Positions 30,871-59,951 of a DNA stretch of 64,000 nt are shown here, piece by piece. The DNA lies in contig NC_092378.1 in assembly GCF_030028105.1 (NCBI RefSeq), forward strand, positions 87,775,764-87,839,763. The letters run 5' to 3'. The stretch comes from Mobula birostris (lineage: Eukaryota). Within the stretch, counting starts at the first letter, position 1. Each line of letters begins with the position of its first letter. The position numbers and the translations under genes are program-made. The notes below the pieces were generated by a model that ran no database searches, was not told the DNA's origin, and saw only the letters and a program-made list of their open reading frames with translations.

Positions 30871-31239
30871 ATTCAGATCATCCTTAACTTTAACATGTAA
30901 CTTATTTCAATAGAAATCAAATGAAATGTTTGAAATTCTTATATTCTTATATGGTGTGAAAGGGTAGGTGTGGAGATGATGTTCTGAATTAGGATTCATG
31001 CTCTCAGAAAAAGAAACTGCATTTTCAGGACTGAAATGAAAAGTTTTTTCAACGAGGTCAGTGAATCTTCCTAATTTCCTTCCCTAAATTTGAAGAAGGG
31101 GATAGGGAGGTCATTCATTGACTATATTTAAGATTGAGGACAATATCTTTCAGATACAATGGGAATCAAAAGATCTCAGCGTAGAATAAACCACAACGCG
31201 ATTGAACGTTAGCCTTCTGTTTCACTCTAGGTAAGGGCT

Positions 31240-31620
31240 GAAGCGGTTCAAAATGCTTTTATGGAAACTACAGGAAACACCGAGGCATAACTTCGCCGCC
31301 AGCGCGGTAAGAGGCGGCTCTCGCCCGGAAATCTCGCGAGACCTAGGAGAGGAGGGCGCCGGCGAGGAGGGAGATCCAAGCGCGAACGTGGGGTCAACGG
31401 GAGAGCGGCGGCCGGTCGGCCGGCAGGTGAACCAAGTCCCAGGGTACCCAGTTTAGGGTGACCGCACGACCCCATCAGGCAGGGCATTAGTGAGGTGTGC
31501 AATCTTCCGTGGAACTCCAGAGCGTCCTGGCCCTCCGCTCCAACCGGCACCGGAGCTCCGGCGCAGCGGCAGACTCTTCTCCCCAGCCCTAGGCTGTCGG
31601 CATTCTGCAGCGGTAGCTGA
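31240..31620 (+). promoter_or_regulatory. CpG-island promoter and non-coding first exon of MAD1L1
   Basis: CpG-rich island; TCTCGCGAGA palindrome 31332-31341; CCGGAAA ETS-like just upstream; TTCAAA (CHR-like) 31247-31252; GCGCGAA (E2F-like) 31380-31386; candidate donor CAG|gtgaac at 31426/31427. Only island upstream of the MAD1L1 ATG exon. Confidence 0.7.
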
Positions 31621-35839: not shown

Positions 35840-38800
35840 ATAGAAACATAGAAAACCTACAGCACAATACAAGCCCTTCAACCCATAATGCTGTGCCAAA
35901 CATGTACTTACTTTAGAAATTACCTAGGGTTACCCATAGCCCTCTATCTTCCTCAGCTCCGTGTACCTATCCAAGAGTCTCTTAAAAGACCCTATCGTAT
36001 CTGCCTCCACCACTGTTGTCGGCAGCCCATCCCATGTACTCACCACTCTCTAAAAGAACTTACCTCTGATATCTCCTCTGTATCTACTTCCAAGCACCTT
36101 AAAACTGTGCCCTCTCGCGTTATCCATTTCAGCCCTGAGAAAAGGCTTCTGACTATCAACACAATCAATGCCTCTCATTATCTTGTATACCTCTATCAGG
36201 TCAGCTCTCATCCTCTGTCGCTCCAAGGACAAAAGGCCAAGTTCACTCAACCTATTCTCATAAGGCAAGCTCCCCAAACGAGGCAACATCCTTGTAAATC
36301 TCCTCTGCACCCTTTCTATAGTTTCCATATCCTTCCTGTATGTAGTGAGGTGACCAGAACTGAGCACAGTATTCCAAGTGGGATCTGACCAGGGTCCTAT
36401 ATAGCTGTGACATTACAGGTTTCCCCCGCCATCTGAAGGTAGAGCGTTCCTATGAAATGGTTCGTAAGCCGAAATGTCGTAAAGTGAAGAAGCAATTACC
36501 ATTTATTTATATGGGAAAATTTTGTGAGCGTTCGCAGACCCAAAAATAACCTACCAATTCATGCCAAATAACACATAAAACCTAAAATAACAGTAACATA
36601 TGGTAAAAGCAGGAATGATATGATTAAGACACAGCCTATATAAAGTAGAAATGCTTTTCCACAATCATTGCTGCACTGTTTGCTGAAGCGAAAATTACAT
36701 GCAAGCGCTCTCGGCAGAAAATCTCACAAGCGCTCTCCGCAGAAACATGGCGCAGGCTCTCTCCAGTAACCTTTAAGCTATGAAGCTGCCAAATCATACC
36801 AAATAACACGTAAAAATACACAGCCGATATGAAGTAGAAATAATGTATGTACAGTGTAGTATCACTTAAGAGAACCGGGAAGACAGTGCAGAGCTCACTG
36901 ATGATGGTGTGTTAGACTGAGTTGTTGGAGTTTGGGTGGTGCAGTGGCCCTGCACCCTCCAGGCCACCGACCGATACATTGCCGCGAGGCACACAGGAGT
37001 CCAGCGGTAGCCGGGAGGCACACAGTACATATTTAAGAAAAAATCCGAAATAAACATGCTAATTAATTAGGTGCCACCCGACATGTAATTGTCGGCTCAG
37101 ATCAGTGCCGATTGCGGATTTTTCTTAAAGATGTGCTGTGTGTCTCCCGACTACTGCTGCATTCTCCGCGAATCGGTACTGTATCTGGGTGTTGGGGTGG
37201 TGGGACACTGGGGTGTCATCTTGTCGTCTGTTTCCATTAGAGCAGGCAGCTCATCTTCTCCTATAACTGCCCGCCTCGATGTTGGAAGGTCGAGGTTCGT
37301 CGTCTGCTGTGGCTGATGTGGAAAGCTTGCTTGACTGCTGAGCCTCGCGCATTTTTCTATCATACAGTTCTTTGTAAGGACTGAAACCATCTTGCAAATA
37401 TCCCCTAAACCGACGTACCCTTTCAAAATTAAAGTCGTACTTTATCATTGCAGCGAAAATCTCACGCAGTGGCTTCACGTTCATTTCGCTACTGCATTCG
37501 GTTTCGATTGTTATTCTTTCCTCTTCCAATTGCATCAACTCTTCATCTATCAGTTCTTGGTCATGGGATGCCAAAACCTCTTCAACATCATCTTCGTCAG
37601 CTTCCACAAGTCAAACTCACTTTGACTTCGTTCACCACGATCAAAACGCTTAATTATGTCTAGTTTTACGCTAAATCGAGCTCTTTCAGGCTTTTCCAAT
37701 ACCTCAGAACTCGTCTTGCAAACGGCTGCTCACTGCAACATGTTAAAGCAATGCCGTTCCGAATCCAAGGGAGAGTGGCTGCTTGGGGCGCGGCATTTTA
37801 TCGCGCGCTGATTTTTTTCGTAACAGTGAAAACACCTTCTGAAAGCGAAAACAGGGTACTAATGTAGGTCTTTCATAACAGTGAGGTTTCATAAAGCAAA
37901 CGTTCGAAAAGCGGCGGACACCTGCACCTCTCAGCTCTTGAACTCAATCCCATGGTTGATGAAGACCAATGCACTGTATGCCTTCTTAACCACACAGTCA
38001 ACCTGTGCAGCAACCTTTGAGTGTCCTATGGACTCGGACCCCAAGATTCCTCTGATCCTCCACACTGCCAAGACTCTTGCCATGAATACTATATTCTGCC
38101 ATCGTATTTGACCTACCAAAATGAACCACCTCACATTTACCTGAGTTGAACTCCATCTGCCACTTCTTAGCCCAGTTTTGCATCCTATCGATGTCCCACT
38201 GTAACCTCTGACAGCCCTCCATACTATCCACAGCACCCCCAACCTTTGTGTCATCAGCAAATTTACTAACCCATCCCTCCACTTCCTCATCCAGGTCATT
38301 TATAAAAATCAAGAAGAGAAGGGGTCCCAGAACAGATCCCTGAGGCACACCACTGGTCACCAATCTCCGTGCAGAATATGACCTGTCTACAACCACACTT
38401 TGTCTTCTGTGAGCATGCCAATTCTGCATCCACAAAGCAAGGTCCCCTTGGATCCTATGCCTCCTTACTTTCTCAATAAGCCTTGCATGGGCTACCTTAT
38501 CAAATGCCTTGCTGAAATCCATATACACTACATCTACTGCTCTACCTTCATCAATGTGTTTAGTCATATTCTCAACAAGTTCAATCAGGCTCGTAAGGCA
38601 TGACCTGCCTTTCACAAAGCCATGCTAACTATTCCTAATCATATTATGCCTCTCCAAATGTTCATAAATCCTGTCTCTCAGGATCTTCTCCATCAACTTA
38701 CCAACCACTGAAGTAAGACTCACTGGTCTATAATTTTCTGGGCTATCTCTACTCTCTTTCTTGAATAAGGAGGCATTTGCAACCCTCCAATCCTCTGGAA

Positions 38801-39545: not shown

Positions 39546-40391
39546 CCTAGACATTTGATACTGAGGGAACCCTTCGAGTTTAATAGGGGATGATGAGAAA
39601 TTTGGAGTGCAAAAAGAGGACTTTTAATAATCTTGGCTTTTAGGAATAAGGAGAAACACCAAAAACTTTTCAAAGATTTGAATGAATAGTTGTTTTATAT
39701 AATGTTATATGATTTTGTTATATAATGTTATATAATTTTATATAATGCTTATATGAACATTATTGTTCAATAATGAATATTGAATGAATAGTAGCTTTGG
39801 AATGAATAGTTCCCTTCAGAGACCAAAAGGAAATTCTTAAGTGTGGAACCAGAAGATTTTAGTGGAATCTGAAATGAGCACTTCCATTGGTAACTGCCAG
39901 GTAGAGGGATGTGCAAATGGAAAGCGAGGGGATGGGTATGCTGATGTTTTAGAACATGCCTGTGACAGGTAGGACGAATGTTAGAAATATTGGTACACGT
40001 TAACATGCACGAATCCCTAAGACCTAATGGGATCTATTCCAAGATTTCTGGGAAGCAAAAGATCAGATTGGAGATTTAAACATCTTTGTTGGTCGCAAGT
40101 GGGTTACAAAAACTGGAGGATAGCTAATTTTGTTCTCTTATTACAAAAAGGGTAAAGCTGAGAAGCTATATGCTGGTGAACCTGAGGGAAATTATTAGAA
40201 ATTTTTCTAAGGTCTAGGATTGATGTTCATTTGGGAAGCCAGAGATTGATTAGGAGTCAGTATGGTTTTTGAAGAAATCCTATTTCACAATCTGATAGAG
40301 ATTTTTGAGAGGTTACTAAGAAAAGTGATGAAGGTATGGTAGTATACATGAAATTCTGTAAGGTTTTGACTAAAGCTAGTCGTGGAGGTTA

Positions 40392-40635
40392 GGAAACACA
40401 CGCAAAATGCTGGTGGAACACAGCAGGCCAGACAGCATCCGTAGGAAGAAGCACAGTCGACGTTTCGGACGAAGGGTCTTGGCCTGAAATGTCGACTATA
40501 GTCCTGACGAAGGGTCTTGGCCCGAAACATTGACTGTGCTTCTTCCCATGGATGCTGTCTGGCCTGCTGTGTTCCACCAGCATTTTGTGTGTGTTGCTTG
40601 AATTTCCAGCATCTGCAGATTTTCTCGTGTTTGCC
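40392..40635 (+). repeat. Penelope-derived palindromic unit with tandem hammerhead cores, flanked by a 9-bp duplication
   Basis: Inverted arms ~40395-40468 and ~40522-40595; tggaggtta at 40383-40391 and 40636-40644; inserted in a decayed CR1. Confidence 0.8.
40488..40531 (+). ncRNA. Putative type III hammerhead ribozyme
   Basis: AAUGU-C(cleavage)-GAC-UAUA-GUC-CUGACGA-A-GGGU-CUUG-GCCC-GAA-ACAUU: all conserved core nucleotides and three pairable stems. Activity untested. Confidence 0.6.
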
Positions 40636-41791
40636 TGGAGGTTACGGCTTGGCAGTGGGAGGTAGAGGATAGTGGTCAAAGATTTCCTTGCCCGGAAATC
40701 TGATGGAGTAGTAGATTATGAAGAAGTTTGTGAAAGGAAAGAAGGGGGATATGAATGGTTGTGTTTGGCAGTGACAGAATTTAATCCAGCCCACTGAGGT
40801 AAAGGATTTGGTGTGTCATATCCTACCAGAACATAAACAATAAATGGAAAGGTCCTAAGGGAGTTGATGTACAGAGAAACCTTGAGGTGCAAGTTCAGAG
40901 CTTTCTAACAAAAAGGTAATGAAGAAGGCATTCAGCATACTTGTCCTCATCAGCTAAGGCACTGAGTATAACAGTTCCAATGTCATTTTGTAGGTGTGCA
41001 AAACATCAGAGTGCTTGACTATGGCACTGCAGGAAGGGCATGATGGTAACAGAGAGTGCAGAAGTGCTTCACCACGATGTTGTCTGGTACAGAGCACCTT
41101 ATTTATAAGGCACAATTCGAAGCTGTGTTTCGTATTTAGGAAGCTGAGGTGTGCCCTTACTGAGGTTTATAAAATTATGAGGTGCAAAGATAAAATCTTT
41201 TTCCTTAGATGTGGAGTTTAAAACTTAAAGGGGGTCTGAGACCCATGTTTTTCATGCAAACAGGAATGAGTTGCCATGAAGTGATAGAGGCAGATACAAT
41301 GATCATGTTTAAAGGGCACTTGAGCAGGTACTTGGATAAGACTGGATTTGGGTGATATGGACCTAATGCAGCCAATTTGTACTAATGTAGGTGGACATCT
41401 CAGTCACCATGGATGACTTGGGCTGAAGACCATGTTTCTGTACTGTACAATTCTGATTCTCCCCCGCCCCATGCAAACTATTCTTTAGCAATATTTTGTT
41501 AACAATTTATATCACCTGATCAGAGAAATGCTCTTTGCTGCACTCATTGGCCTCTCCACCTTCTTTATCACCTGGAGACTTTTTCTCTCTTTCTCAGCTC
41601 TGTTGAAGCGTCCTCGATCTAAAATTGTAACCGTTTTTCTTACCACAGATACTGTCTGACCTGCAGTTTTTTCCCCCCAAAATTTTCTTATTTTTGTGTA
41701 TTTTTATCAGTTTTGGATGATGTACAGTGTACCTTTGAATAAACTTTTTTTTGTCTGAATTGTTTCCTTTGATATACAGGGCAAAGTTAGA

Positions 41792-41941
41792 ATGGATGAC
41801 CCAGGAGAGAATACCACTGTTGTCTCCACCTTACGTTCCTTCAACAACTTCTTGTCACTAAGTTCAGCACCTGTGCACAGCACAGACGAACCAAGCTCAA
41901 CTTCACGTCTTTTGCTACTGCAATACCAGCAGAGGCTTGAG
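41792..41941 (+). CDS. MAD1L1: MAD1L1 (spindle checkpoint MAD1) first coding exon (exon starts 41780)
   Basis: MDDPGENTTVVSTLRSFNNFLS...LQYQQRLE resembles human MEDLGENTMVLSTLRSLNNFIS...QYQQSMQ; tacag| acceptor, GAG|gttagt donor; 150 nt. Confidence 0.92.
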
Positions 41942-43499
41942 GTTAGTACATTGTTCTGCAGTGTCACTGTGGTACTGATGGTAGTAAGCATTACTTTGTA
42001 TTTTAGTTTTCTCTTTTAGTTAAAGACTTCTGCAATACAGTGCAATGTGGACATTTCAATTATATTATGGCTCAAATAATGCGCATTCAGGAAATTAATT
42101 CAGTGAGTAGTTAAACCCTATAGATCGTCACAGAATCTTGACAGCTAAGATGGTTTATTTTTGATTACTGAGAGTTATGTGTTTAGTAATGTATGTACAA
42201 TGATGGTTTGGGGGAGGAAATAAAAGCAGCAAAAATTTGTGGGGTGGAAAGAGGAGTAAGTTGAAAATAATCTAAGGCCCTCATTTGTTTTTGTTTGGGG
42301 GATTATTGAGCTTGATTTCCTTTTGAGGTTGCTGGTAATGTCTTTTTTTCAAGCCTTGATTAATTTATTGTCTTACTCCAAACATTTTAATTTTTTGCCA
42401 CTTTGAGATGTGCTGTAGCCACATTTTGACAGACTAGCAATAAGGGGGGATTGTTGCTTTGCTGTTGCTTATGTGCGGCAGGGAGGGGAACTGGAGGAGA
42501 CTTTGGGGTTCTAACATTTAACTGCCATCCACTCTTTAGAGGCACTCCTCTTGTTTTCATGGATGTTTGCGAAGAAAAACCACTTCAGGATATATATTGT
42601 ATACATTTCTCTGACATTAAATGTACCTTTAAAACCTTTGAAAGCATTGGAGATCAGTCCTCTTGAGCTGTACAGCAGCTGCACTATCTAACACCATGAT
42701 GCCAGTCTTGCAAAAGCACAAGAAGCCAAAGTTGCATTCATGGCCATGTTCAGTTAAAGCAATGATTAAGTGTTTAATGTGTTGGTCCAGAGGTGAATGT
42801 TCTTTGAGTGGAGTGGATGAACCATAAGATTATTGATGAGAAAAGCATATAAAGAGGTTATTCAGGCCAACATGACTTTGCTGACTTTGAACTAACCTAT
42901 TGCTTTTCCATTTTTATTACCCCATAGCGATGAAATTCATTTTCTCTTCAAATAATAAATACTGAAGAGAACACAATAAAGGACCTTGGGGTTTAACTGA
43001 GGAATCTCTTTGCAGGCAGTATTCCAGACTATTTATGTTGTCCTTTTTAGAGCAGTGTTATCTCAGCGAAGTAGTTCTCCACTGTTGCTTTTGAACTGAG
43101 CAGACATTTGTCAATAGGGAGTGACAGAGAGAAATTTGATCTGAAGATTGAGCTATCTTTGATTTTTGTCTTTCTTCTCCTATGCAGAGTTGCTTTGCTG
43201 CTTTAATACTTTTGTTAAAAGAAATCACTAATTTGGCAGGAGTTGCCTTGAGTAAATATTTAGTTAGTGAAATAATTCCTGACCTGCAGGAACTTCAGCA
43301 ACTGAAACCAGCAATTGTTGATCATGCTTAATTTTTTTGATAACACAATGAATCCACTTTTAAAAACTTTCAGTGAAGGTGCCTCCACAGCCTTTTGAGT
43401 ACTGAATTTGAGGATGCTTTTAAGGAGGAACTATAATGTATTCCCAAGTCAGGATGTTATGTGACTTAGAGGAGGATCTGCAGGTGGTAACGTTAGAAC

Positions 43500-45010
43500 A
43501 TAGACCATAAGAAATAAGAGCAAGTGTACGCTGTGGTGATAATTGATGTTCTAGTTATCTTCTTCCAAAATTCTAAAGATCCTGAATAGTTCCAGTAGAC
43601 TGGAGGACAACAGATGTGACTTTGCTATTTAAGAAAGGAGGGGGAAAAACAAGGAACTGCTGACATTCTGGAGACACTGAAAATGTTAATAATTGATAGC
43701 ACTGTTGGCTAAACTTAAAAATAGTTATGTAACCAGAGCCAAATAGGATACACTCAAAGAATTTGAGAGAAATGTGTGAGGAAACTAGAGAAAACTGATC
43801 TTCCAATACTCTGGATACTGGAGTAATGTTAAAGAGATGGAGATTGATACACCTTTCAAAAAAAAAGCAAGTATGTGCCTAATAACCACAGGCCAATAGC
43901 TTAATCTCAGTGGTGAGAAGACTTTTGGAAACATAGATTTAGGATGGGATTAATTGCCACCTTGAGGAAACTTAAAGTAAACCAGCAAGAATTTGCTAAG
44001 GGCAAATTGTATTTAACAAATACAATGTTTTTTTTTTGCCTTCATTGTGGTATACATAAATTTCCAGAATGGTTTTGATAAAGAGCAGGGTTACAGGGTT
44101 AAGCTGAACTTGTGACTTAAGAGGGTCATTCACAGCATGGATACAAATTTAATTAAGTAATAAAGAGAGGGTCAGGGTCTTATGGATAGGAGGAGATGAT
44201 TAGTGGCATTTCCCATGATTGGTTTTGGGGATCGATGTCTTTTTTTGGATCTATATTTATTCCCAAGACTTCAGGATGCAAGAGAGTTTCTAAATTTGTA
44301 GATGACACAATATTTGGCAATGTTGTAAATTATGCAGAAAACAGTGTTAGGTTATACCAGGACACAGAGGATAGTTGAATAGCAGAGGTGTGGAACAATT
44401 ATGAGGAGATGCATTTTGATAGGAGAAAAGAGGAGGAGGTAACATAGCAAAAAGATTACTTCTCTAAATGGGGTGCAGGAGCAAAGGGGCCATGTGGGTG
44501 TGTTTACAGATGTCTTCAGAGGAGGCAGGATTGGAAAGCAGTTTATAAGAAATACATGGTTCTTAGTTTTATCAATAGAGGCTAGGGTATAAAAATAAGG
44601 AAGTGATGTTGAAACTTCATACAACACTAGTGTGGCCTCAAATAGAATATTGTATTAATTTCAAGTTACCTCATTATGGGAAATTATGTGAAAATATTAG
44701 AAAGGAACCACTCACAAGACTGGTTCTGGGATATGGATTGCAGCCACAAGGATAGGTTTGAGAAACTGGGACCATTTTCTTTGATAGAGTGGGGCTTTGG
44801 TAGAAACTTGCAAAATGATGGAGGGTTTGGATAGTTGTTGACTAGTTTTTGATTGAAATGTTGAGGACAAAAGGAATAAGAATATGGAAGAAAATTAAGA
44901 ATGACTTGAAGAATATTTTTATTTAGAATCTGGAATTTATACCCATAAGTGTAAGCAGGTTGCATAGCCTTTAAGAGGGATCTGGGTAAAAAAATATGTT
45001 GGAGAAGAAT
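43500..45010 (+). mobile_element. Old, heavily decayed CR1 LINE
   Basis: Residual motifs (SKFVDDT, ccacaggccaatagcttaatctcagtggt) collinear with CR1 ORF2. Confidence 0.6.
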
Positions 45011-45319
45011 AAGCAAGGCCACATAAAAAAGGACTCTTCGATGGAACTGGAGAATTGCTTGAGTTGAGAGCTAGTTGACAATGGCTTCTTTCATACGGTT
45101 GCTATCAAGACCCTGAGAAAATAGTATGATTATCCAGATTGTCTGTAGATGTTTGCGGATTTATTAAAAGGATCATTTTATGACTCACCGGTTGAAAGTT
45201 TTTTTTGAGGATGTATCTGGAAGAAAACATGAAAGGAAATCAGTGGATATGATTTATTTGGGCTTCTGATAAGATTCCCACATGAGGTTTGCAAACAAAG
45301 TTGAAGCATATAAAATTGG

Positions 45320-46290
45320 AAACACAAGAGATACTGCAGGTGCTGGAAATCCAGAGCAACATGCACAAAGTGCTGGAGGAACTCGACAGGTCAGGCAGCA
45401 TCCATGGAGAGGAATGAAGAGTCGATGTTTTGGACTAAGACCCTTTATCAGGACTGGGAAGAACAGGGAAGATGGCTGGAATAAAAATGTTGGGGGGTGA
45501 GGGGAAGGAAGACAAGCTAGAGGTGAAAGGTGAGGCCAGGTGGGTGGGGGGAATGAAGAAAGAAGCTGGGAGGTGACAGGTGGAAAAGGCAAAGGACTAG
45601 AGATGAAGGAATCGAAAGGAGAGGAGAGTGGACCATGGGGGAAAGGAGGGACACCAGGGGGAAGGTGATAGGCTGGCGAGGAGAAGAGGTAAGAGGCCAG
45701 AGTGGAGAATAGAAGAAGAGGGAAGGGGGAGGGGCAAAAATTACTGGAAAGAAAAACCAATGTTGCCACCAGGTTGGAGACAGAAAATGAGGTGTTGCTT
45801 CTCCATCTTGAGAGTGGACTCACCGTGGCAGAAGAGGAGGCCATGAACTGGCATGTCAAAACAGGAATGAGGATAGGAATTAAAATAGTTGGCCACTGGG
45901 AAATTCTGCTTTTTGCTGATAGTGCCTGACAATGCATTCCCCATTCCCCATCGATAATCATCAATATATAGGAGGCTGCATTGGGAGCGCCGGATACAGT
46001 AGACAACCCCAGCAGATTTGCAGGTGGAGTGTTGCCTTTCCTGGAAGGACTGTATGGTGCTCTGAATGGAGATGAGGGAGGAGGTGAATGGGCAGGTGTA
46101 GCACTTCTGTCACTTGCAGGGATAAGTGCCAGGAAGGAGGTTAATATAGTGGGATGAATGGACAATAGAATTATGGAGGGTGCAATACCTGTGGAATGCA
46201 GTTAGTGGTGGGGGGGGGGGGTAAAGATGTGGTAGGATCCCATTGAAGGTGTCGAAAGTTGTAGAGGATGATGTGTTGGATGCGTAGGAC
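45320..46290 (-). mobile_element. Penelope-like element 3' portion (GIY-YIG endonuclease remnant plus terminal repeat with decayed hammerhead)
   Basis: Frameshifted peptides PPPPLTAFHR...HNSIVHSS...PGTYPCK and PVANYFNSYPHS...HGLLFCHGESTLKMEKQHLIFCL, typical of the Penelope C-terminus; ends in the same ~135 bp unit dispersed across the window. Confidence 0.8.
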
Positions 46291-46519
46291 CTGGAGAAAG
46301 CCCACACATTCCATGGGAGGGGCTCCTTACAGAGGACACCGGGATTGACTTCAAACTCTGATGCCCTGAGCTGTAATAATGTTGTGCTAACTGCTACACT
46401 GCAATGGCACCTTCTTTTGTTGTGACTAAAAATTCCAATTTGTCTGTGATTGTTCTGAGTTCTTAAACTCTGTAATGATCATCCTGCTTACTGTTGTGGT
46501 TGTTGGTAGGATTATTCCA

Positions 46520-47385
46520 ATATCCTCCATCAGATGTCCTGCTTCCTCAATGCCACCTGTCTTCATATCGTCTGCAACTTTTACCACAAAATCATCAATT
46601 CCGTCATTCAAACCATTGACATATAACATGAAAAGAAGCGGTCCCAACACCAATCCCTGTCGAACACCGCTTTTCACTGGCAGCCAACTAGAAAAGGCCC
46701 TCTTTATTTCCATGCTTTGTCTCCTGCCAATTAGCCAATCTTCTGTCCATGCTGGTATATTCCCTGTAATACCATGGACTCATCTTGTTAAGCAGCCTCA
46801 TGTGCAGTACCTTGTCAAATGCCCAACATCCTTTGTCTATCCTGCTTGTTATTTCTTAAAAGAATTCCAGTAAATTTGCCAAGCATGATTTCCCCTTAAG
46901 GAAACTTTGCTCATTTTGGCCTATTTTATCATGTGCCTCCAAGTACCCCAAAACCTCATCCTTAATGATGGACTCCAACATTTTCTGAACTGCTGAAGTT
47001 GGGCTAAGTGGCCTATATTTTATTTTCTTCTGTCTTCCTCCCTTCTAAAGAGTGGAGTAACTTTTGCTAATTTACAGTCCTCCGTAACCTTTTCAGAATT
47101 CAGTGATTCTTGAAAGATCATTACTAATGCCTTCAGAATCTCTTCAGAACACAGGGGTGTAATCCATCTGGTCCAGGTGACTTATTTACCTTTAGACCTT
47201 TTAGCTTTCTAAGCACTTTCTCCCTCTCTCGAACTTCCAGCATACTGCTAGTATCTTCCACGGTGAAGACTGATGCAAAATATTTATTCAGTTCATCTGC
47301 CATTTCCTTGTACCGTATTAGTACCTCTCTAGTTTAATTTTCCAGCAATCTGATATATACTCTTGCCTCTCTTTCACTCTTTGAA
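46520..47385 (-). mobile_element. CR1 LINE fragment
   Basis: SWLPVKSGVRQGLVLGPLLFMLYVN...KVADDMK. Confidence 0.75.
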
Positions 47386-48031
47386 CAATTGGAGCAGAAG
47401 CCAATGATCATAATCTTACTGAATGGCAGAGTAGGTTTGAGAGACCATATGTTGACATCTTGTGTAGGTAGTTTATGTGTACCAGTTGTTTTCTTGGTCT
47501 TCAAGTACTTGCAATTAAATTTTTAAAGTTAATACGATGAAATTATAACCACAAACAGTGTCAAATGATAATTATCTGCTTTCAAAAGTGATGGAAAAAG
47601 TAGACCAAAAAACATGCAGTCTAGGAATCTTTGTTTAACAACTGATGGAACAGTGAACAAGGCGAGCACAGCACAATCCTTTTCTGCATTGATATCTCAA
47701 CAAGATACAGTAGCTAAGAATAGAATTCAGATTAAAAAAAAACTTAGCTGTTTCTGAATCCAAAGAAGATGATATTTTTGTTTTCTTGTAGCTTTCCAGT
47801 TTGATATTAACTACCCCACAAAGTTGGGGCTGTTGAATTTCAAAGTTAAAATTTATTCTCAAAGTACATGTATGTCACCTTATGCTACCCTGAGATTCAT
47901 TTTCTTGTGGGCATCCTCAGTCGATACAAAGAAACACAATCGAATCAATGGAAAAACCACGCACAACAAAGATAGAAAACCACTGTGCAAAAGACAACAA
48001 ACTGTGCAAATACAAAAATGAAAATATAATA

Positions 48032-50551
48032 CAGGTTTCCCCCGCTATCTGAAGGTAGAGCGTTCCTATGAAACGGTTCGTAAGCCCGAATGTCGTAAAG
48101 TGAACAAGCAATTACCATTTATTAACGTAAACACGAGGAATTCTGCAGATGCTGGAAATTCAAGCAACACACATCAAAGTTGTTGGTGAACGCAGCAGGC
48201 CAGGCAGCGTCTATAGGAAGAGGTACAGTCGACGTTTTGGGCCCAGACCCTTCGTCAGGACTAACTGAAAGAAGAGCTAGTAAGAGATTTGAAAGTGGGG
48301 GGGGGTGGAGATCCAAAATGATAGGAGAAGACAGGAGGGGGAGGGATGGAGCCAAGAGCTGGACAGGTGATTGGCAAAAGGGATATGAGAGGATTATGGG
48401 ACAGGAGGCCCAGGGAGAAGGAAAGGGGGAGGGGGGAAAAACTCAGAGGATTTTTTTTCTCCCTCTGTCCCTCTGACCAGACCCCTTGCCCATCCACTGG
48501 GTTCCCCCCCCCCCCCTTTTCCTTCTCCCTGGGCCTCCTGTCCCATGATCCACTCATATCCCTTTTGCCAATCACCTGTCCAGCTCTTGGCTCCATCCCT
48601 CCCCCTCCTCTTCTCCTATTATTTTGGACCCCCCGCCCCCCCAAAAACTTTCAAATCTCTTACTAGCTCTTCTTTCAGTTAGTCCTGACAAAGTGTCTCG
48701 GCCCAAAACGTCGACTACCTCTTCCTAGAGATGCTGCCTGGCCTGCTGCGTTCACCAGCAACTTTGATGTGTGTTACCATTTATTAATATGGGAAAAGTT
48801 TTTGAGCATTCCCAGACCCAAAAAATAACCTATGAAATCATGCCAAATAACACATAAAACCTAAAATATCAGTAGCATGTAGTAAAAGCAGGAATGATAT
48901 GATAAATACACAGCCTATATAAAGTAGAAATACTTTTCTACAGCACTGTCTAGCGCAATGAAAATCTCGCGGAAGCGCTCTCGACAAAAACATGGCGCAA
49001 ACACTGTCAGCAGAAGCACTCTCTCCAGTAACCTTTAAGCTACGAAGCTGCCAAATCATACCAGATAACACATAAAAATAGACAGCCTATATAAAGAAGA
49101 AATAATGTATGTACAGTGTAGTTTCACTTACCGGAATCGGGAAGACTCCAATAAATTGCAGTTTCATCACAGTTAAACGCTTATACGAATAACCACCTGA
49201 TGCAATCGGCAATCGCCTCTGATCTGGGCCGGCCGACATTTACATGCCCGGCGGCACCTAATTAATTAGATTATGAGGACACTCAGTCTTCGTTTATTGT
49301 CATTTAGAAATGCATGCATTAAAAATAATACAACTTTCCTCCAGAATGGTATCACAAGAAAACACAAGACAAACCAAGAATAAAACTGACAAAACCACAT
49401 AATTATAACATATAGTTACAACAGTGCAAAGCAATACCATAATTTGATAAAGAGCAGACCACGGGCACGGTAAAAAAAAACTTCTCAAAGTCCCGATAGA
49501 CTCATCACCTCACGCAGGCGGCAGAAGGGATGAACTCTCCCCGCCATGACCTCCAAGCGCCGCCAACTTGCCGATGCAGCACCATTGGAAGCACCCGACC
49601 GCAGCGGATTCTTGAGTCCGTCCAAAAACTTAGAGCCTCTGTCCAGCCCCTCCGACACAGCCTCGCCGAGCACCATCCTCTGCTGAGCGCTTCGACCCTG
49701 CCCCGGCTGCCGAGCAACAAGCAAAACCGAGGACTCGGGGGTTTTCTCCTCCAGAGATTCTGGACTTGTTTAGCTTGTTTATTTCAGCTTTTTTCTTAAA
49801 GATGTGCTGGGTGCATCCCGACTACCGCTGCACCACTGAGTCCTTTGCGGCCTGGAGGTTGGGGACCACTGCTTAAGCTATGATGCTGCCCTTGCCTCAG
49901 AAACCGATCAAACCACCCATGACTACGTTTAAATTCCACTTTTGCAACACTTTCATCACCATCGTCCAGTGCTTTTTGTTTCAGCTTATTAAAAAGACTG
50001 ACTGATTTCTCCTTAAGTATAAGAAAACTTAATGGAACACCACGCTTTGTACACCCATCAATCCACTCAAGCAATAGACTTTCCATTTTATCCATTATTG
50101 GATGCTGACTAAGAGAGACCACTTTACTACGAGCAGAACCAACAGTAACATCGGCAGCTTTCAAAATTCTTTCTGCGTATAAATAGTGCGAATGGTGGAC
50201 ACAGGCAAGTTCAACGCGCGGACAATGTCTTTACTTCATTCACCATGATTGAAACGCTTAATTATGTCTAGTTTTATGCTAAGTGTAACGCCCTTACGAG
50301 CTCTTTTAGGCTTTGCTGATATCTTAGAACTCATCTTGCTAACGGATGCACAAAATAAATCGAAATAAAGCACGGGTTTAAGCAATGCCGGCGAGAATGC
50401 AGTGCCGGGGGAGGAACTTGGCTGTTCGGGCGAGCGCTGCCTTTTTTTCGTAACAGTGAAAACTTCTGTTACCGAAAACAGGTAACTAATGTAAGTCTTT
50501 CGTAACAGTGAGATGTCGTAAACTGAACGTTCGGAAAACGGGGGCCACCTG
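48032..50551 (-). mobile_element. Tigger/pogo-like DNA transposon, internally deleted (copy 2), with nested inserts
   Basis: TA-caggtttcccccgc ... ggggccacctg-TA; CENP-B-type HTH fragments MSSKISAKPKRARKGVTLSIKLDIIKR and MESLLLEWID...LKEKSVSLF...FKRSHGWFDRF. Confidence 0.88.
48126..48773. repeat. Inverted (palindromic) Penelope terminal-repeat insertion with 14-bp target-site duplication
   Basis: ~270 bp inverted arms (~48166-48440 and ~48500-48775); ttaccatttattaa at 48112-48125 and 48774-48787. Confidence 0.85.
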
Positions 50552-51649
50552 TAATAAATAAATAATAAGTATTGCGAATACAAGTTGTAGAATCCTTAAT
50601 AGTCTGTCCATAGATTGTGGAGTCAGTTCAGTGTTGGGGTGAGTGAAGTTATTGCCTCTGCTTCAAGAGCCTTATGGTTGAGGTGTAATAATTGTGCTTG
50701 AACCTAGTGATGTGGGACCTAGAGTTTGTATGCCTTCTTGCTGATGGCAGCAGCTAGAAGAGAACATGGCATGGATGGTGGATGTCCTTGACGATGGAAA
50801 CTGCTTTCCTAGGACAGCACTTCTTGTAAATGCGCTGATTGGTGGGGAGGGCTTTACCCATGATAGACTGGGCTGTACCACTACTTTTTGTAGAGTTTTC
50901 TGTTCAAGGCATTGGTGCTTCCATACCAGCCCCTGATGCAACTAGTCAGGATATCTTCCACTGTGCATCTATAGAAGTTTAAAAATTTTAGATAACATGC
51001 CCTGTTCGTGCAAACTTCTAAGAAAGGAGAAGCACCCCAGTGCCTTCTTTGTAATGGCAATTACATGCTGGATCCATGACAGATCATCTGAAATGATAAT
51101 GCCAAGGAATTAAAGTTGCTGATCCCTCCACTGGCACATGGACCTCCTCCTGTAGTCAATAACCATCCCTTTAGTTTTGCTGACATTGAGTGAGAGGTTG
51201 TTGTGGCACCATCAGACAGATTTTCAATCTTCTTTCTTTTTCTGAATCGTCACCACCTTTGATCTGGCCAGTGGCAGTGGTGTTGTCAGCTAACTTAAAT
51301 ATGCCATTGGAACTGTACTTGTCTCCACAGTCATAAGCGTAAAGCGAGTAGAGCAAGGGACTAAGCACACAACCTTGTGCTGCATCTATGCTGATTGTGA
51401 TTGTGGTAAGATGTTGCCAATTCGAAGCGACCTGGGTCAGCAAGTGAGGAAATCGAGGATCCAGTTGCACCGTGCTTAGAGTGAATAGATTTTAAATAGC
51501 GTCAGTTGTGTGCACTTGTGTTCAAAAAGCAGTGATAGTGAGCAAGTGAAGAAACAGTAAAACAATTCAAAACTGTTTTGCTGACTGTCATTCAGGCTTG
51601 GTGATGTTAGAAATGGCCGAGAGCGAAAATGAAATGATTACACAGAGTT

Positions 51650-54600
51650 ACAAAATACACGTGGACTAAGATGTTAACTGTCCTGTGCTATCACCAGTGG
51701 GATCATCAGTTGATCTGCCACCTGTCTTCAGGAGTTTCAGCCCGCTTATGATCAAGACTCCCTTGAGGTGGTGGGCCAGCAGTGCTAAAGCACCACCTCC
51801 CACTGGTGAGCTTAAAAACTTGGCATCTGCCTCTATCAGAGTTGTTGGTCACTTCCATCCAACAGATAGTCTACTCTTCAGGTGTCTATGCAACTACTGA
51901 AGGGTTTGCAAGATATGTATACACTGTCTGACTATCTGCCCCTCTGGACATATTTGGTCCACTCCCATGCTGATCCTTTCTCTGCTGCCTCAGCTACAGC
52001 CCTGCTGGTTGACTTGATCTCTCTTCTAGTGAAGCCAGGGTCACGCAGCCACTTCTGGAGAGTGAACACAATAAAGCCATGGCAACCTACTTCGAATGGA
52101 TAGCATGAGACCTTCCACCCTCTGTCTCTGCACTCTGATTTTAATTCTGCATGCTTGGTTAACTTGCGCTCATGGGCTTCACTGATGTTGTCTTCCCAGG
52201 GGACTGTGAGTTCACCAATAACCACTTCTCTACTGGTGTCAGACCATACGATTCTATCTGGACACAATGTGGTGAAAGCTATTTGCTCCGGGAAACTGCC
52301 TTTCCCGTCCAGGTCAGCCTTAACACACCAATCATTGGCTGAAGAAAGTATGCTTGGTCGTGAGCCTGTGCTGCACACCCTTGACTTGGAGCCTTCTTTC
52401 ACAAATGATATGCGATGTTCTGTGCAGCATGGGGCATGAGATAAGTTGTTCTGCAGTACTCTCTGCTCAGCCACTTCTGTTACAACTTTGAGAACGTTGT
52501 TATGTCTCCAAGTGTACATGCCACTGGAAAGATTGACTCTGCATGCACTCAAAATATGTTGAAGTGTTCCCTTCTCACCACAAGCAGCACACCTGTCTGT
52601 CTTATCTTCATACCAGGTGCTGAGGTTGGCAGGTGTTGGGAGCAGATCGTACGCTGCTCTACATAGAAAAGAAATGCGGAGCGGTTCCATCTGTCACAGA
52701 ACATTCCAAGATAGATGTCGTTGTTCAACACTTTCCCTCCGGGTCCAAGCCCCTTGTTTGGCCGGGCCAGCTGTTTTAGCTAACCTCTTCTCCTATTCTA
52801 CCTCTCGTATTTCTTGTGTCACAAGCTCATGGCGCTCCTTACCTGTAGAAGATGACCACCACTCTTGTGGGTTGTCCATCCAAGTCCCTGGCGGCCTAGC
52901 TGGATAGCCCCAACTGTCTCCTTGTGCTTCAATCTAGACTCTACCTCATCAACTGCTACACGGGCTGACCACTTCTTGCCTGATCTCACATCCGGCTGGG
53001 TGTTCTTGATGATAGGGTCTTTTGAGCCTCAAAGCATCAAGAATGATCTTACCTTGGCTACCTTGACCTCCTCAACAAGGGATTGCACTGGGATGGTAAG
53101 CTTTGTCTGGCTACTGTGGATTGCAACATTGGTGAGGCTGCTTGGTACTCCAAGCCACTTCTTCACATACTTATTGATCTTCCGTTCCATTGCCTCAACA
53201 TGGAACATTGCCATTTCATAGACAGTTAGTGGCCACATTATCCATGGCATCAGTCCATACTGCAAGCACCACAACTTCAACTTGCCAGGCAAGCCACACT
53301 TGTCAACAGACATCAGACCTCTGCTGATCTGATCTCCTGTCTCTTGAACCCTCTTGGTGTCTCTCAGCTCCTCTGTATACCATCGCCCGAGGCTCTTAAC
53401 TGGTTGGTCCTGAATGGATGGAATCTCCTCTCCACAAAGGGTGAAATGAAAGTCAACCAGCTTTCCTCTCCTAAGAACAAGGCTCCTTGACTTCTTGGTC
53501 TTGAACTTCATTCTTCTCCAGTCCATTAGCTCTCGAGTCTAGATAGTACACTTTCCACTGCCTCCGTGCTGGAACCCAAAAGGGTAAGATCGTCCATGAA
53601 CGCTCATATTGCTGGTAACTCCCCTCTGCCATCAAGTGCGACACCTGGTCCCACTGATTCTGCAGCCCTCACAATGACCTCCATGGCTAACACAAAAAGG
53701 ATGTGTGAAATTGCACATCCCATTGGGATTTCAACATCCAGGCTCTGCCACCTGGTTGTAAACTGCTGAGTGGAAAACCTCATCTGGAAATCGTTGTAGT
53801 ACTGTATAACAAAGTTCCTCACCTTAGCAGGAATCCATAGGAATTCCATCGCAAACTCAATCAGGACATGGGGAACAGAACCATACGCATTTGCCAGATC
53901 AAGCCACACTACAGCTAGATTTCTTCTCAACCTTTTTGACTCCTGGCTGGTATGCCATAGCATACTAGAATGTTCAAGGCATCCTGGGAAGCCTGGTATT
54001 CCTGCTTTCTGCACAGATGTATTTACTAATCCATTCTCTATCACAAATGAAGATACTCTTTCTGCCAGAATGCCAAACATAATCTTCCCCTCTACATTCA
54101 GGAGTGAAATTGGTCGGAACTGATTCAATGGAGAAGAATTCTCTTCCTTTGGGATGTATACTCCTTCAGCCTCGCTCCATGACAAAGGAACAACACCTTG
54201 TCTCCACACCATCTTTAACAATCTCCACAAGTACTTCCTCAGCTGTTCACACTTCTTGAACACCTTATACGGCACTCCATTAGGTCCTGGCACTGAGCCT
54301 GACCTTGCCTTTCTAATGAACCATTGGACTTCTGCCAGTTTGGGTTCTGACAGATCGAACTTCACTCCTGGCTTGGTAGGCTTCACAAGCCCTGAAATGT
54401 CAAGCAAAGGAGCCTCCCGCTGTTCGTTAGAGTAAGTGCTTGCCAGGTGATCCTCAAGTTCTTGTTGAGAGATGTTAAGCTGCCTGCTCTTACTTGTTCA
54501 AACAGTTTCTTTGTAAACTCATGAGGGTTCTCAAAGAACGACTTTCTTGCCTTCTCTCTCTTCTTTCTCTTTTTACGTTGTGACTCTGCATGATGGAGTG

Positions 54601-55040
54601 ATGCTAACTTTATTTGAAAATGCTCTCGGAGATCAGCAAGCCCTGGCTTGTCACCCTCACTTGCTACCTTCCACCTCTGTCTCAACGATCTAAGCTCTCT
54701 CCTCAACCTACTTATCTCCTTCTGGCGCCTGCTTGGTTGCTGTGTAGGCTTTGCTTTCTTCAACTCAACCAAATCAGACCTGTACTTTCCAACATCGTAA
54801 ATCATATCGCCCATGACTTCCAACTTTCTCTTTGATGTTCCCCTGAGAGTGTTCTCCAACATCATACTTATATCCTCATCAAATACACGCCAAACCTTCT
54901 CTGCCATTGCTGGCCACTTGACCTTCCTCTTCTTCTCTACCTCCACACCACTGCCATCATGCGAAGGATCTACCTGGGTACTGTGGTCTGAAACCTGACC
55001 TGGGTTATCTCTCGTCTGACCTGGAGTATGATGACTCTCT
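51650..55040 (-). mobile_element. Long RLE-type non-LTR retrotransposon (HERO/NeSL/R2 group), mildly disabled
   Basis: RT (FRPISLLNVEGK, WLDLANAYGSVPH, MGCAISHILF, AFMDD), CCHC finger CAACGEKGTLQHILSAC, RHN motif WRHNNVL, and restriction-like endonuclease CPDRIVWSD...GELTVPWE; few stops and frameshifts. Confidence 0.88.
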
Positions 55041-55079
55041 CCAGAGCAAATCGCTGTGGCTTGTGAATCAGTAGTTGAA

Positions 55080-58000
55080 CATATTAGAGGACTAAATGGG
55101 AATAAAGTTTGTCAAATGTGTTCAGAAAAGTCTTTTTCATCAGTATGTAGAAGTCCCAATGAGAGAGTATGCGATACCGCATCTGCTATTAGGGAATGAG
55201 ACAGGGCAGATGACAGAAGTTTGTGTAGGGGAACACTTTGCATCTCTTGACCACAATGCCATTAGTTTCAAAATAAATATGCAAAAAAGTAGATCTGGTC
55301 TGGGGGGGTGGGGTTGAGATTCTAAGTTGGAGAAAGGTCAATATTGATTGTATCAGGCAGGATAGGCTGTTCTGGGACCTCTACTTTTCCTGATTTTTAT
55401 TAACGACCTGGATGTGGGGGTAGAGGGGTGGGTTGGCAAGTTTGCAGATGACACAAAGGTTGCTGGTGTTGTAGATAGTGTAGGGGATTGTCAAAGATTG
55501 CAGAGAGACTTTGATAGGATGCAGAAGTGGGCTGAGAAGTGGCAGATGGAGTTCAACCTGGAGAAGTGTGAGGTGGTACACTTTGGAAGGACAAACTCCA
55601 AGGCAGAGTACAAAGTAAATGGCAGGATACTTGGTAGTGTGGAGGAGCAGAGGGATCTCGGGGTACATGTCCACAGATCCCTGAAAGTTGCCTCACAGGT
55701 GGATAGGGTAGTTAAAAAAGCTTATAGGGTGTTAGCTTTCATAAGTCGAGGGATAGAGTTTAAGAGTCGCGATGTAATAATGCAGCTCTATAAAACTCTG
55801 GTTCGGCCACACTTGGAGTACTGTGTCCAGTTCTGGTCACCTCACTATAGGAAGTATGTGGAAGCATTGGAAAGGGTACAGAGGAGATTTACCAGGATGC
55901 TGCCTGGTTTAGAAAGTATGAATTATGATCAGAGATTAAGGGAGCTAGGGCTTTACTCTTTGGAGAGAAGGAGGATGAGAGGAGACATGATAGAGGTGTA
56001 CAAGATAATAAGAGGAATAGATAGAGTGGATAGCCAGCGCCTCTTCCCCAGGGCACCACTGCTCAATACAAGAGGACATGGCTTTAAGGTAAGGGGTGGG
56101 AAGTTCAAGGGGGATATTAGAGGAAGGTTTTTTACTCAGAGAGTGGTTGGTGCGTAGAATGCACTGCCTGAGTCAGTGGTGGAGGCAGATACACTAGTGA
56201 AGTTTAAGAGACTACTAGACAGGTATATGGAGGAATTTAAGGTGGGAGGTTATATGGGAGGCAGGGTTTGAGGGTTGGCACAACATTGTGGGCCGAAGGG
56301 CCTGTACTGTGCTGTACTATTCTATGTTCTATGTTTTCTGGCAGAGGTGTACTTGGTAAGTGGGAGGCCTTCAAAAGTGAAATTTTGGGAGTACAAAGCT
56401 TTTATGTCCCTGTCAGAATTAAAGATAACAAGTTCAGGGAACGCAAACAACAGTTCAGGGAACATTAATTTTTCAAGAGATATTGAGGCCCTGGTTAAGG
56501 AAAAAAAGGAGGTGTTTGTGCTTATGGAGTGCAAGAAGTGCAAGAGAATATTTAAGAAAGAAATCAGGAGGGCCAAAAGAAGGCATGAAGTTGCCCTAGC
56601 AGACAAGGTGAACGAGAATCCTAACAGATTCTATGTATGTTAAGAGCAAAAGAATTGCCAAGGTCAAAATTGGTCCCCTGGGAGATCAGAATGGTAATCC
56701 AGGTGTGCAGCCAAAGCAGACTGGAGAGAGATCTTAAATAAATTTGTTGCATCTGTATTTACTCGGGAGATGGACACAGGGTCTATAGAAGTGAGACAAA
56801 ATAGCATCAACTTCATGGATCCTGTACAGATTACAGAGGAGGAGGTGCTTGCTGTCATAAGGCAAATCAGGGTTGATAAATCCTTAGTGCCTGGTGTTTC
56901 CTTGGGAGGCAAATGCAGAAATTGCTAGGGGCCTAGCAGAGATATTTAAAATATCCTTAGTGACAGGAGAGGTACCAGAGGATTGGAAGATAGCCAATGT
57001 TGTTCTGCTGTTTAAAAGAGGCTCTAAACATAAACCAGGAAATTATAGGCAAGTGAGTCTGACATCAGTTGTGGGAAAGTTACTGGAAGATATTTTAAGG
57101 GACTGGATATATTGATATTTGGATAAGCATGGACTGATAAAAGATAGTCAGTATGGCTTCCTGCATGGTAGGTCATGTCTAGTCAATCTTAGAGAGTTTT
57201 TCGAGGAAGTTACCAGGAAAGTGGATGAAGGCAAGGCAGTAGATATTGTCTACATGGACTTCAGCAAGGCAGTTGACAAGGTTTGACGTGGGAGTTTGGT
57301 CAGTTGCTCGGCATTCAAGATGAGCTAGTAAATTGGAGTAGATGGTGGCTTTGTGGTAGAAGTCAGAGAATGGTAGTAGATGGTTGCCTCTCTGACTGGA
57401 GGCCTGTGACTAATTGTATGCTGCAGGGATCAGTTCTGGCTGCTTTGTTGTTTGTCATCTATATCAATAATCTGACTGATAATGTGGATCAGCAGATTTA
57501 TGGATGATACCAAGATTGTGGGTGTAGTGGACAGCAAGGAAGTTTATCATGGCATGCAGAAGAATCTGGACCAGCTGGGAAAAATGGTCTGAAAATGGCA
57601 GATGAAATTTAATGCAGACATGTTTCAGTTTTTGCACTTCGGTAGGACCGACCAGAGTAGGTCTTACACAGTGAACGGTAGGGCACTGAGGAGTTTGGTA
57701 CAACAAAGGGATCTGGGAATACAGGACCATAATTTGTTTAAATTGCGTCACAGGTAGATAGGGTCATAAGGAATCTTTGGGCACGTTGTCACTCATAAGT
57801 TAATGTATTGAGTACAGGAGATGGGATTTTATGTTGAGGTTGTATAAGATGTTGGTGAAGCCTAATTTGGGGTATTGTGTGCAGGTTTGGTGAACAAGGT
57901 TGAAAGAGTACAGAGAAAATTTACAAGGATGTTGCAGGGTCTGGAGGACCTGAGTTATAAGGAAAGATTGAATAGGTTAGGACTCTATTCTTTAGGATGT

Positions 58001-58375
58001 GGAAGATTGAGAGGAGATTTGATAAAGTATACAAAATTATGAGGGGATTTGATAGGGCAAATGCAAGCAGGCTGTTTCCACTGAGGTTGGGTGGAACTAC
58101 CACCAGAGGCCATGAATTAAGTGTGAACGGTGAGAAGTTTAAGCAGAACATGAGGGGAACCATCTGCACTCAGAGGGTTGTGAGAGTGTGGAATGAGCTG
58201 CCAGCACAAGTGGTGCATGTGAGCTCCATTTCAATGTTTAAGAGAAGATTGGATGGTAGGGGTATAGAGGGCTATGGTCCCGGTGCATGTTGATGGGAGT
58301 AGGCAGTCTAAGTGGTTTTGGCATGGACTAGTTGGGCTGAAGGGCATGTTTCTGTGCTGTACTTCTTTATTACTC
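55080..58375 (+). mobile_element. Older ~2.3 kb CR1 LINE with a younger CR1 (55369-56333) nested inside
   Basis: The younger copy has an uninterrupted 247-aa RT C-terminal ORF (55414-56157) and a (tctatgt)n tail; host sequence ataggctgt|ttttctggcagagg rejoins across it. Confidence 0.9.
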
Positions 58376-58814
58376 TTTGACACTACTTCTACAAGTAGAA
58401 ACTATGAAGAATTTAAAGGTATCGACAATCATCTTGAATGTTACAATGAAATGAACGTTTGTAGGATGCATTCGTTGATAGCATAGTATGAAGGCAGTCC
58501 ATTATTTACACTAGTCACCTGTGCTGATTTTGTTCATTTCATTGATTCAAAAGAGCGTGTACACTGGATGAATTCCTCTGTTGATAACTATTAGGAACTA
58601 ATACAGTTTTTTAGTACTGTAGTAATATTGATAGTGTTCTAATTTGTTCTGTATTTCATTTAAATACATCATTTGTTACTCAGTTAAATGATAGTTTGTC
58701 CTTTTTTAAAATATCTTTTTAAATATTTCCATGGAACTTAAGCTAATTTGGTCAGCCTCTTCTTAATTGGACCAAAGTGTGCTGGTCCCAATGTGTCCCA
58801 ATTATCTGGAATTG

Positions 58815-59290
58815 TTCCTCAGACATTGAGCGTTTGTCTTTAGGCTTCTGTACTTCCTCTCTGATGGTTGGTAATAAAAATCGGGCATATCCTGGGTAAG
58901 AGTGGGGATCCTTACTGATGGACACTCCCCTTTGAGGCACCGCCTTTTGAAGATGTCATCAATGGTGGGGAAGCCAGTGCCCATGATGGAGCTGGCTGAG
59001 TTTACAACCATCTGCAGGTTTTTTTGATCACGTGGGGTGGCCCCACTCTACCAGATGGTGATGTAACCAGTTAGAATGCTCGCCACTGTACATCTGTACT
59101 GAATCTCCTCAAACTCCTAATGAAATATAGCTGCTAGTGTGATCTGTTTGTAATTGCATCAGTATGTTGGACCCAGGATAGATAGATTTTCAAAGATGTT
59201 GACACCCAGGAACTTGAAACTGCTTTCCCTTTCCACTGCTGACCTCTCGATTAGGACTGGAGTTGTGTTCCTTTGACTTCCCCTTCAATT
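58815..59290 (-). mobile_element. Rex1/L2-like LINE 3' fragment
   Basis: VVNSASSIMGTGFPTIDDIFKRRCLK...PSERKYRSLKT; same family as 15661 and 27355. Confidence 0.7.
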
Positions 59291-59810
59291 TTTATTTATT
59301 GAAAAATATTTGTTGTGAATGTACAACCTATTTTTATGCCTGTAAGGATTTGGATATATGCGTACATGTCCTTTAAGATCTCAGGATTTTTAAACTTAGT
59401 TGGTACAGTTTAGTAATTTAGGTTGTTGAGGAAATCCACCAGCAGAAAACCATTTCACTGGGATTACAAACTACTTTTTGTGGAATGGCTATGAAACCAA
59501 ATCTTTTGTTTCTGTGGTGAGAATATTTATTTAGTTTGGATGATGTTCTTTTAGGTCATGACATAGGTCTGTATTTTATGAAAGTGAAAAGATCATGTAT
59601 TGTCCAAAATTAAAGAATATTTATATCATTAATGTATATTTAATCAAAATACGCTATCACGTGGATATAAACATTGCTCATCTAATTTTTTTGTGCTGAT
59701 ATTGTTTTCTGTCTCTCATTCTTCTAAACCCTTCTCTAAAACTACCCTAACCCCTCATAATTCCTTAAAAAACACTACAGTTTAAAAACCGCTTGACATA
59801 TATTTTCTAG

Positions 59811-59951
59811 GTTGAAGAACAGGCTGAATATATTCTTTCCCACTCTCGCACTTTAGAGGCGGAACGAGAAAAACAGAAAATGGAAGTTAGTCATAAACGA
59901 GCTAGGATTGAGCTGGAGAAGGCAGCACAGTCCAGCTCCTGGAACCATGAG
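59811..59951 (+). CDS. MAD1L1: MAD1L1 coding exon 2 (141 nt)
   Basis: ttctag|VEEQAEYILSHSRTLEAEREKQKMEVSHKRARIELEKAAQSSSWNHE|gtttgt; matches human [22 protein letters not shown]. Confidence 0.95.

Follow-up and report, generated by a model that had tools for sequence, protein, structure and literature searches.

Host gene and anatomy of the insertion

The window (the whole stretch of 64,000 nucleotides analysed here) carries the first coding exon of MAD1L1 at 41780-41941 on the plus strand. Its ATG lies at 41792, and its AG acceptor and GT donor were read from the sequence. Taken alone, this exon gave no Pfam match. Three further exons (59811-59951, 60816-60995, and 62678-62802) were recognized by splice signals and open frames. 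The last two match the Pfam family MAD (PF05557) weakly, and past the end of the window the same strand carries seven additional MAD matches, arranged in order. We take the MAD family in vertebrates to be MAD1L1. The preliminary description had placed the site in this gene in the sense orientation, and both points are borne out by the splice-read exons and the same-strand matches. The intron after the ATG exon is 17.9 kb long (41942-59810), and the gene spans more than 1.09 Mb up to the last MAD match (C11:88910033). Upstream, a CpG island on the plus strand with a donor-like GT at 31427 (31200-31600; GC 57-67%, CpG o/e 0.7-1.2) is a likely candidate for the MAD1L1 promoter and a non-coding exon 1.

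A 244-nt insertion lies at 40392-40635. It is a 5'-truncated Penelope-like element (PLE), flanked by a 9-bp target-site duplication (identical 9-mers at 40383-40391 and 40636-40644). The ATG exon begins 1.15 kb past its end. Assignment of the site to intron 1 is plausible, as it lies between the CpG island and the ATG exon, although exon 1 is itself a candidate feature. The anatomy of the insertion is directly observed: an inverted arm is followed by a partial hammerhead core and then by a full core with its tail. The left arm (40392-40467, minus strand) is a truncated stretch of the PLE 3' tail in inverted orientation, recognized from the inverted repeats, the arm alignment (69/73 matching), and the folds. 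Partial unit 1 (40468-40499, plus strand), recognized by direct repeat and unit comparison, starts at G5 (40468), with U4 and the 5' strand of stem I replaced by the inverted arm. Unit 2 (40500-40535, plus strand) is a complete minimal type I PLE hammerhead, with its core at 40504-40510, an A at 40511, stem II at 40512-40523, and GAAA at 40524-40527. The non-coding PLE 3' tail (40536-40635, plus strand) is on average 89% identical to the right arms of 21 family members. Both cores lie within an 80-nt inverted repeat (40395-40474 and 40516-40595, 91% complementary). In the plus-strand RNA, the left arm is complementary to the cleavage-site strand 40478-40497 and to the right arm. Two tandem cores had been proposed here. 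The 30-nt direct repeat agrees with this (87% alike, 38 nt apart), but the upstream unit is incomplete.

PLE insertions are described as normally including partial tandems and inverted copies next to them (PMC8557442). The locus resembles the insertions of Craig et al. 2021 (PMC8557442) in having a truncated copy, a partial tandem before it, and an adjoining inverted copy. It differs from them in being only 244 nt long and in having a tandem unit of exactly one ribozyme length.

The formal hammerhead at 40488-40531

The letters of the hammerhead can be read directly. Stem III consists of AAUGU (40488-40492) and ACAUU (40527-40531), which form five Watson-Crick pairs. The GUC triplet occupies 40491-40493, and a cut is predicted after 40493, conditional on the active fold. 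Stem I is formed by GAC (40494-40496) and GUC (40501-40503), 3 bp closed by the loop UAUA. The core CUGACGA (40504-40510) is followed by the extra A (40511), by stem II (GGGU 40512-40515 with GCCC 40520-40523, 4 bp including one G-U; loop CUUG), and by GAA (40524-40526). The core region 40504-40527 is intact (CUGANGA...GAAA, with stem II present). Unit 1 contributes the 5' strand of stem III, C17 at 40493, and the stem I strand 40494-40496. All letters and pairings given previously were found at their positions.

Stems I and II are closed by loops, stem III is open, and the NUH triplet is GUC. The site on the plus strand is thus matched by a type III descriptor, and the formal layout claimed for it is upheld. 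It gives the single match to the generic descriptor in the 64-kb window on both strands; the antisense strand of the window has none. The same descriptor matches 4 of 100 dinucleotide shuffles, and the match at 40488-40531 exceeds the expectation for random DNA. Rfam hammerhead models gave no match at the gathering threshold over the window and none at E<=10 over 2 kb and 101 nt, a check that had been suggested for this site and that came out negative at every threshold tried. This does not count against PLE membership, because minimal motifs are defined by a separate descriptor.

The sequence features of PLE minimal type I hammerheads are present. The closing pair G10.1-C11.1 is G40512-C40523, and the extra nucleotide between 9 and 10.1 is A40511. 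Positions 15.2-16.2 are palindromic without a loop III, the TG and CA dyads of the two units being decayed CG. The minimal hammerheads described by Cervera and de la Pena 2014 in the pLTRs of metazoan PLEs (PMC4209133) share with the locus the core letters, the extra nucleotide, G10.1-C11.1, the palindromic 15.2-16.2 without loop III, a short helix I, and a position downstream of a GIY-YIG ORF. They likewise occur as tens of thousands of truncated copies, and the members of a tandem pair supply each other's helix III (PMC4209133). The extra A had been taken for a viroid-like peculiarity. The CChMVd hammerhead does carry it (PMC2632901), but it figures among the hallmarks given for the minimal hammerheads of PLEs (PMC4209133).

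The locus also departs from these relatives. The partner core lies 38 nt away here, and about 3 kb or one retrozyme unit away in the known cases (PMC4209133). With the partner this close, a 4-nt loop closes one of the two sites and gives it the look of type III. The other site that a double hammerhead would have, with its cut at 40531, was considered and rejected: U4 and the stem I strand are missing from unit 1, and this truncation, a further difference from the known double hammerhead (PMC4209133), leaves that site dead. Helix II has 4 bp, compared with 7-8 bp in Schistosoma (PMC4209133). The natural hammerheads of type III that occur in viroids, satellite RNAs, and plant LTR retrozymes (CChMVd, PMC2632901; PMC6155905) share the open helix III and the core. 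They also share the extra A where stem II begins and the U at the 5' end of loop 1 (PMC2632901). In contrast to them, stem I here has 3 bp and a 4-nt loop, and loop 2 (CUUG) has neither a 5' purine nor a 3' A (PMC2632901); the hammerhead is not the preferred predicted fold, has no Rfam match, and bears no sign of selection.

Non-LTR retrozymes of animals also contain PLE-derived, head-to-tail type I hammerheads capable of acting as dimers (PMC7229834; bioRxiv 10.64898/2026.07.22.740005), and the same sources report them in one chondrichthyan genome. The unit here is 38 nt, as against 51-972 bp, with one complete core (bioRxiv 10.64898/2026.07.22.740005), and its surroundings are a PLE tail and an inverted arm. 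Identity as a retrozyme was rejected, since it needs at least two consecutive complete hammerheads (PMC7229834; PMC6765202) and unit 1 starts at G5. Judged by its letters, the locus is a PLE minimal hammerhead arranged as half a double hammerhead.

The Penelope-like family and its tandem junctions

An exact genome search with a 34-letter degenerate core pattern gave 57,677 matches; the reversed-pattern control gave 0. Five further family cores lie inside the 64-kb window. The upstream part of a longer window copy (48480-48700), used as a query, retrieved 30 loci, 12 of which have an ORF that ends 338-347 nt upstream of the core on the same strand. Both ORFs scanned (2/2) match GIY-YIG (PF01541) with E 0.003, below the curated cut-off. 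Pfam gave no match to an RT domain in the ORF fragments of the longer copies. Because GIY-YIG ORF ends precede the core on the same strand, the core family is the 3' end of a PLE, and the Penelope origin proposed earlier stands. Membership of the locus in this family is a direct observation. Among the literature matches listed for hammerheads or Penelope in elasmobranchs there was nothing on this core family, and supplements (e.g., the alignments of PMC4209133) may include it.

In the first 42 copies listed, an inverted arm is found within 450 nt in six, and the stem III dyad is CG in 31. The canonical G10.1-C11.1 pair, kept at 40488-40531, is present in only eight. In this sample (L125-L164) the other 34 cores have U in place of C at 11.1, which gives a G10.1-U11.1 wobble; the main subfamily thus lacks the canonical pair that closes stem II. 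Longer copies (48660-48682 in the window and most of L125-L164) have a pyrimidine run and CAG, similar to a 3' splice site, 3 nt upstream of stem I. This resembles the intron end of Drosophila virilis Penelope (PMC4209133). It is absent from the copy at 40500. A longer, tail-to-tail inverted pair of the core family lies at 48129-48775, inside a MAD1L1 intron, within another repeat that is also present at 36420-36640. The CpG-rich segment 36420-37920, with repeated sub-terminal blocks, is probably a DNA transposon within a LINE fragment.

Searching the genome for head-to-tail core junctions with exact patterns gave 66 in about 59 loci, and the reversed-pattern control gave 0. As mismatches were disallowed, 66 is a floor; on the other hand, a few of the loci are so nearly alike that they may go back to a single event by duplication. 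Tandems make up roughly 0.1% of cores. All 66 junctions were examined for a complete type III hammerhead, defined by an intact core, stems II and I of at least 3 pairs, and stem III of at least 4. This layout was found in 36, of which 31 have GUC, 23 have a longer stem I than the site at 40488-40531, and four have a 5-bp stem III. The recurrence of the layout is directly observed, and the layout cannot be called special to this site. PLE hammerheads reportedly cleave as dimers (Lunse et al. 2017). In the published dimer model, head-to-tail minimal type I units of PLEs act as a double hammerhead (PMC4209133; PMC6155905). When a downstream core is combined with an upstream triplet, the linker closes stem I and stem III stays open, and type III topology results by construction. 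The type III fold at this site amounts to half of the double hammerhead already described for PLEs, the linker being very short. No report of single-unit tandem hammerheads was found among the literature matches listed.

Several loci hold longer arrays at 37-40-nt spacing, with five matching cores in L044 (G000:C4:178772300-178772560) and three in L041; L031, L034, L064, and L087 are further arrays of this type. Their repeat unit is the ribozyme alone, below the 51-bp minimum reported for non-LTR retrozymes. In context, the active fold is predicted to be most accessible at L031 (7e-3), which however has a GUU triplet. The palindrome L048 (G000:C5:193194939-193195032) carries a tandem core on both arms, with a linker common to the L044 array. 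As the tandem is on both arms, it predates the fold-back.

The three changes that shape stem III (40490, 40529, and 40531) are all CpG transitions, as can be seen directly. CpG decay had already been named as their source, and this part of the earlier account is correct; the complementarity of the two copies, pointed out there with the caveat that it might be coincidental, is at the chance level. Dyad pairs of the TG/CA or CA/TG kind occur in 3 of 66 junctions, compared with 2.5 expected from the margins, and compensatory evolution was rejected on this count. A CA mismatch breaks stem III in 17 of the 66. Relative to the majority of 21 close copies, the right arm differs at 6 of 135 sites, and four of these differences are of CpG type. 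On these sequence comparisons, nothing at the locus points to selection.

The 5' junctions of the first 42 copies listed are unevenly placed: 12 are no more than 8 nt from stem I (a diverged subfamily accounts for one of them), four in the next 52 nt, and 26 beyond 60 nt. Genome-wide, 97 copies have an antisense core joined to a sense tail, with the four letters of stem I as the exact point of junction. The clustering of junctions together with the 97 fold-backs marks stem I as a hot spot for template jumps and fold-backs. The ribozyme stem seems to steer the errors of reverse transcription. In a check for a footprint of cleavage in vivo, insertion 5' ends fall at the cut site in 266 copies, compared with 216 at -4 and 153 at +4, an excess of about 2.7-fold when the looseness of the patterns is allowed for; of the first 100 cut-site ends listed, 47 (counted by eye) are of one junction type, the fold-back through the stem I tetramer. 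Two junctions (L051 and L065) match that at 40488-40531 save for one transition. The 66 junctions hold 43 different linkers, some of which recur at separate loci (5 and 5 times). Because of this diversity, repeated accidents are favored over a single tandem lineage.

Judged from the junctions, a template jump is the likely route to the tandem at this locus, with later slippage or a tandem source copy as alternatives. Reverse transcription would have run from the tail through the core and halted at the 5' edge of stem I (40500). A restart just past the 3' strand of stem I would have copied part of the core again, and a template switch would then have made the inverted arm. Later CpG transitions would have happened to leave stem III paired.

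Predicted folding and likely fate of the site

Folding was calculated with ViennaRNA, with the active fold defined by three enforced core-proximal pairs per stem and an unpaired core. The fractions below come from a model that lacks Mg2+, tertiary, and kinetic terms and is uncalibrated on a known active hammerhead. The predicted active fraction is 0.6% for the 44-mer, 0.6-1.3% (about 1%) in isolation, and 0.1% for 40480-40540. For 40470-40540, which includes stem II of unit 1 and in which the stem II sequences of both units pair with each other, it drops to 5e-9. For the full insertion it is 4e-11, and the active fold there lies 14.7 kcal/mol above the ensemble. In the trimmed RNA the active fold is only about 3 kcal/mol above the ensemble. 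The active fraction was no better at 25 C. In two analyses the hammerhead was the minimum-energy fold in 0 of 5 and 0 of 9 stretches folded, and the preferred predicted fold of the 44-mer pairs GUC with the core. The RNA had been said to fold as a hammerhead; in the folding of short RNAs and of 40392-40635, the hammerhead is never the structure of lowest energy. Among the 36 complete junctions, the site ranks third in active fraction when trimmed and 16th in context.

For transcripts growing from 40300, the predicted active fraction is at most 4e-11 at every 3' end considered. Before unit 2 emerges, 40488-40496, which includes the cleavage site, is predicted to pair with the left arm at 0.98-1.0. 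During transcription the inverted arm would thus pair with 40478-40497 and bury the cleavage site, and emergence of the right arm would give a 70-bp hairpin with the two cores paired together at its tip. The inverted arm had been named as a caveat because it can sequester the 3' strand. Sequestration is indeed predicted, but it would not be limited to that strand, as the cleavage site itself pairs with the arm. If the active fold is held by constraint, it fits the tip of the long hairpin with the outer arms unbroken; a chaperone could therefore in principle open the site.

The loop-loop docking motif of natural type III hammerheads consists of a 5' U in loop 1 and a purine-rich loop 2 ending in A (PMC2632901). 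Loop 2 ends in A in 22 of 27 natural cases, and the contact lets type III hammerheads work at low Mg2+ (PMC2632901). At this site the first letter of loop 1 (UAUA) is indeed U, but loop 2 reads CUUG. With both the loop motif and, by prediction, an accessible monomer fold in the transcript lacking, the site is a type III hammerhead on paper only.

We consider it most probable (roughly 0.8) that the locus is an ordinary, inactive by-product: a 5'-truncated PLE insertion with one and a half hammerhead units in head-to-tail order, whose formal cleavage site is predicted to be folded shut. Probably, then, the motif is real, its origin ordinary, and the site silent. This is compatible with another reading, which differs only in the behavior of an isolated fragment: a trimmed RNA of 44-60 nt might work as a minimal hammerhead in vitro at high Mg2+ while the natural transcript stays uncut. 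The chances of such activity seem to us about even. The intact core letters, the GUC, the G10.1-C11.1 pair, the 5-bp stem III, and the small energy gap of the trimmed RNA speak for it, and other PLE motifs cut to some extent with a lengthened helix III at non-physiological Mg2+ (PMC4209133). The 3-bp stem I, the pairing of GUC with the core in the 44-mer, and a loop 2 that ends in G and not in the docking A (PMC2632901) weigh against it. Even with helix III lengthened, cleavage of PLE minimal hammerheads was weak (PMC4209133).

Self-cleavage of the MAD1L1 pre-mRNA as a monomer, the main suggestion of the preliminary description, does not hold up in the folding model, given the active fraction predicted for the transcript and the early burial of the cleavage site. 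The site might still cut in cis after refolding by a chaperone or a PLE protein, and might then lower or reshape MAD1L1 transcripts. It lies with intact core on the sense strand between the CpG island and the ATG exon, PLE protein aids cleavage in Anolis (PMC11167929), and amniotes have domesticated intronic hammerheads (PMC6155905). Against this stand the penalty of 14-15 kcal/mol and early sequestration in context, the rank of 16th of 36, a tail whose six differences in 135 positions (four of them CpG transitions) are those of a neutrally ageing copy, the lack of excess compensation, and the lack of an Rfam hammerhead match at E<=10. The Anolis PLE hammerhead did not cleave without its protein, and cut ends were not found in RNA-seq (PMC11167929). 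We regard cleavage in the pre-mRNA as the least probable of the readings. Scarcely more credible is the compound proposal that template jumps at stem I mint type III-like hammerheads from dimer-dependent cores (at least 36 here) and that the protein-refolded site cuts the MAD1L1 pre-mRNA. It is also improbable, if somewhat less so, that the locus is a decayed descendant of mobile micro-retrozymes, a lineage in which a ribozyme-only unit of 37-42 nt spreads as tandem arrays. The arrays of three (L041) and five (L044) cores at 37-40-nt spacing, the linkers that recur at separate loci, and the tandem on both arms of L048 would fit such a lineage, but the 43 linkers in 66 junctions point to many independent origins. 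Tandems are moreover about 0.1% of copies and end in an ordinary PLE tail, unit 1 (40468-40499) is incomplete, and described units measure 51-972 bp (bioRxiv 10.64898/2026.07.22.740005).

On the by-product reading the locus, as it stands, joins tens of thousands of other truncated Penelope ends. If it cut, a spindle-checkpoint gene would contain a transposon ribozyme that a copying error had made self-contained and freed from its dependence on a dimer. That, if true, would be a route for the de novo gain of an intronic cis-acting ribozyme by an animal gene. The natural tandem cores of 37-42 nt without an inverted arm (e.g., L031, L056, L080, and L084) are better test pieces than this locus, and the question they address is whether minimal PLE hammerheads can cleave in cis without protein.
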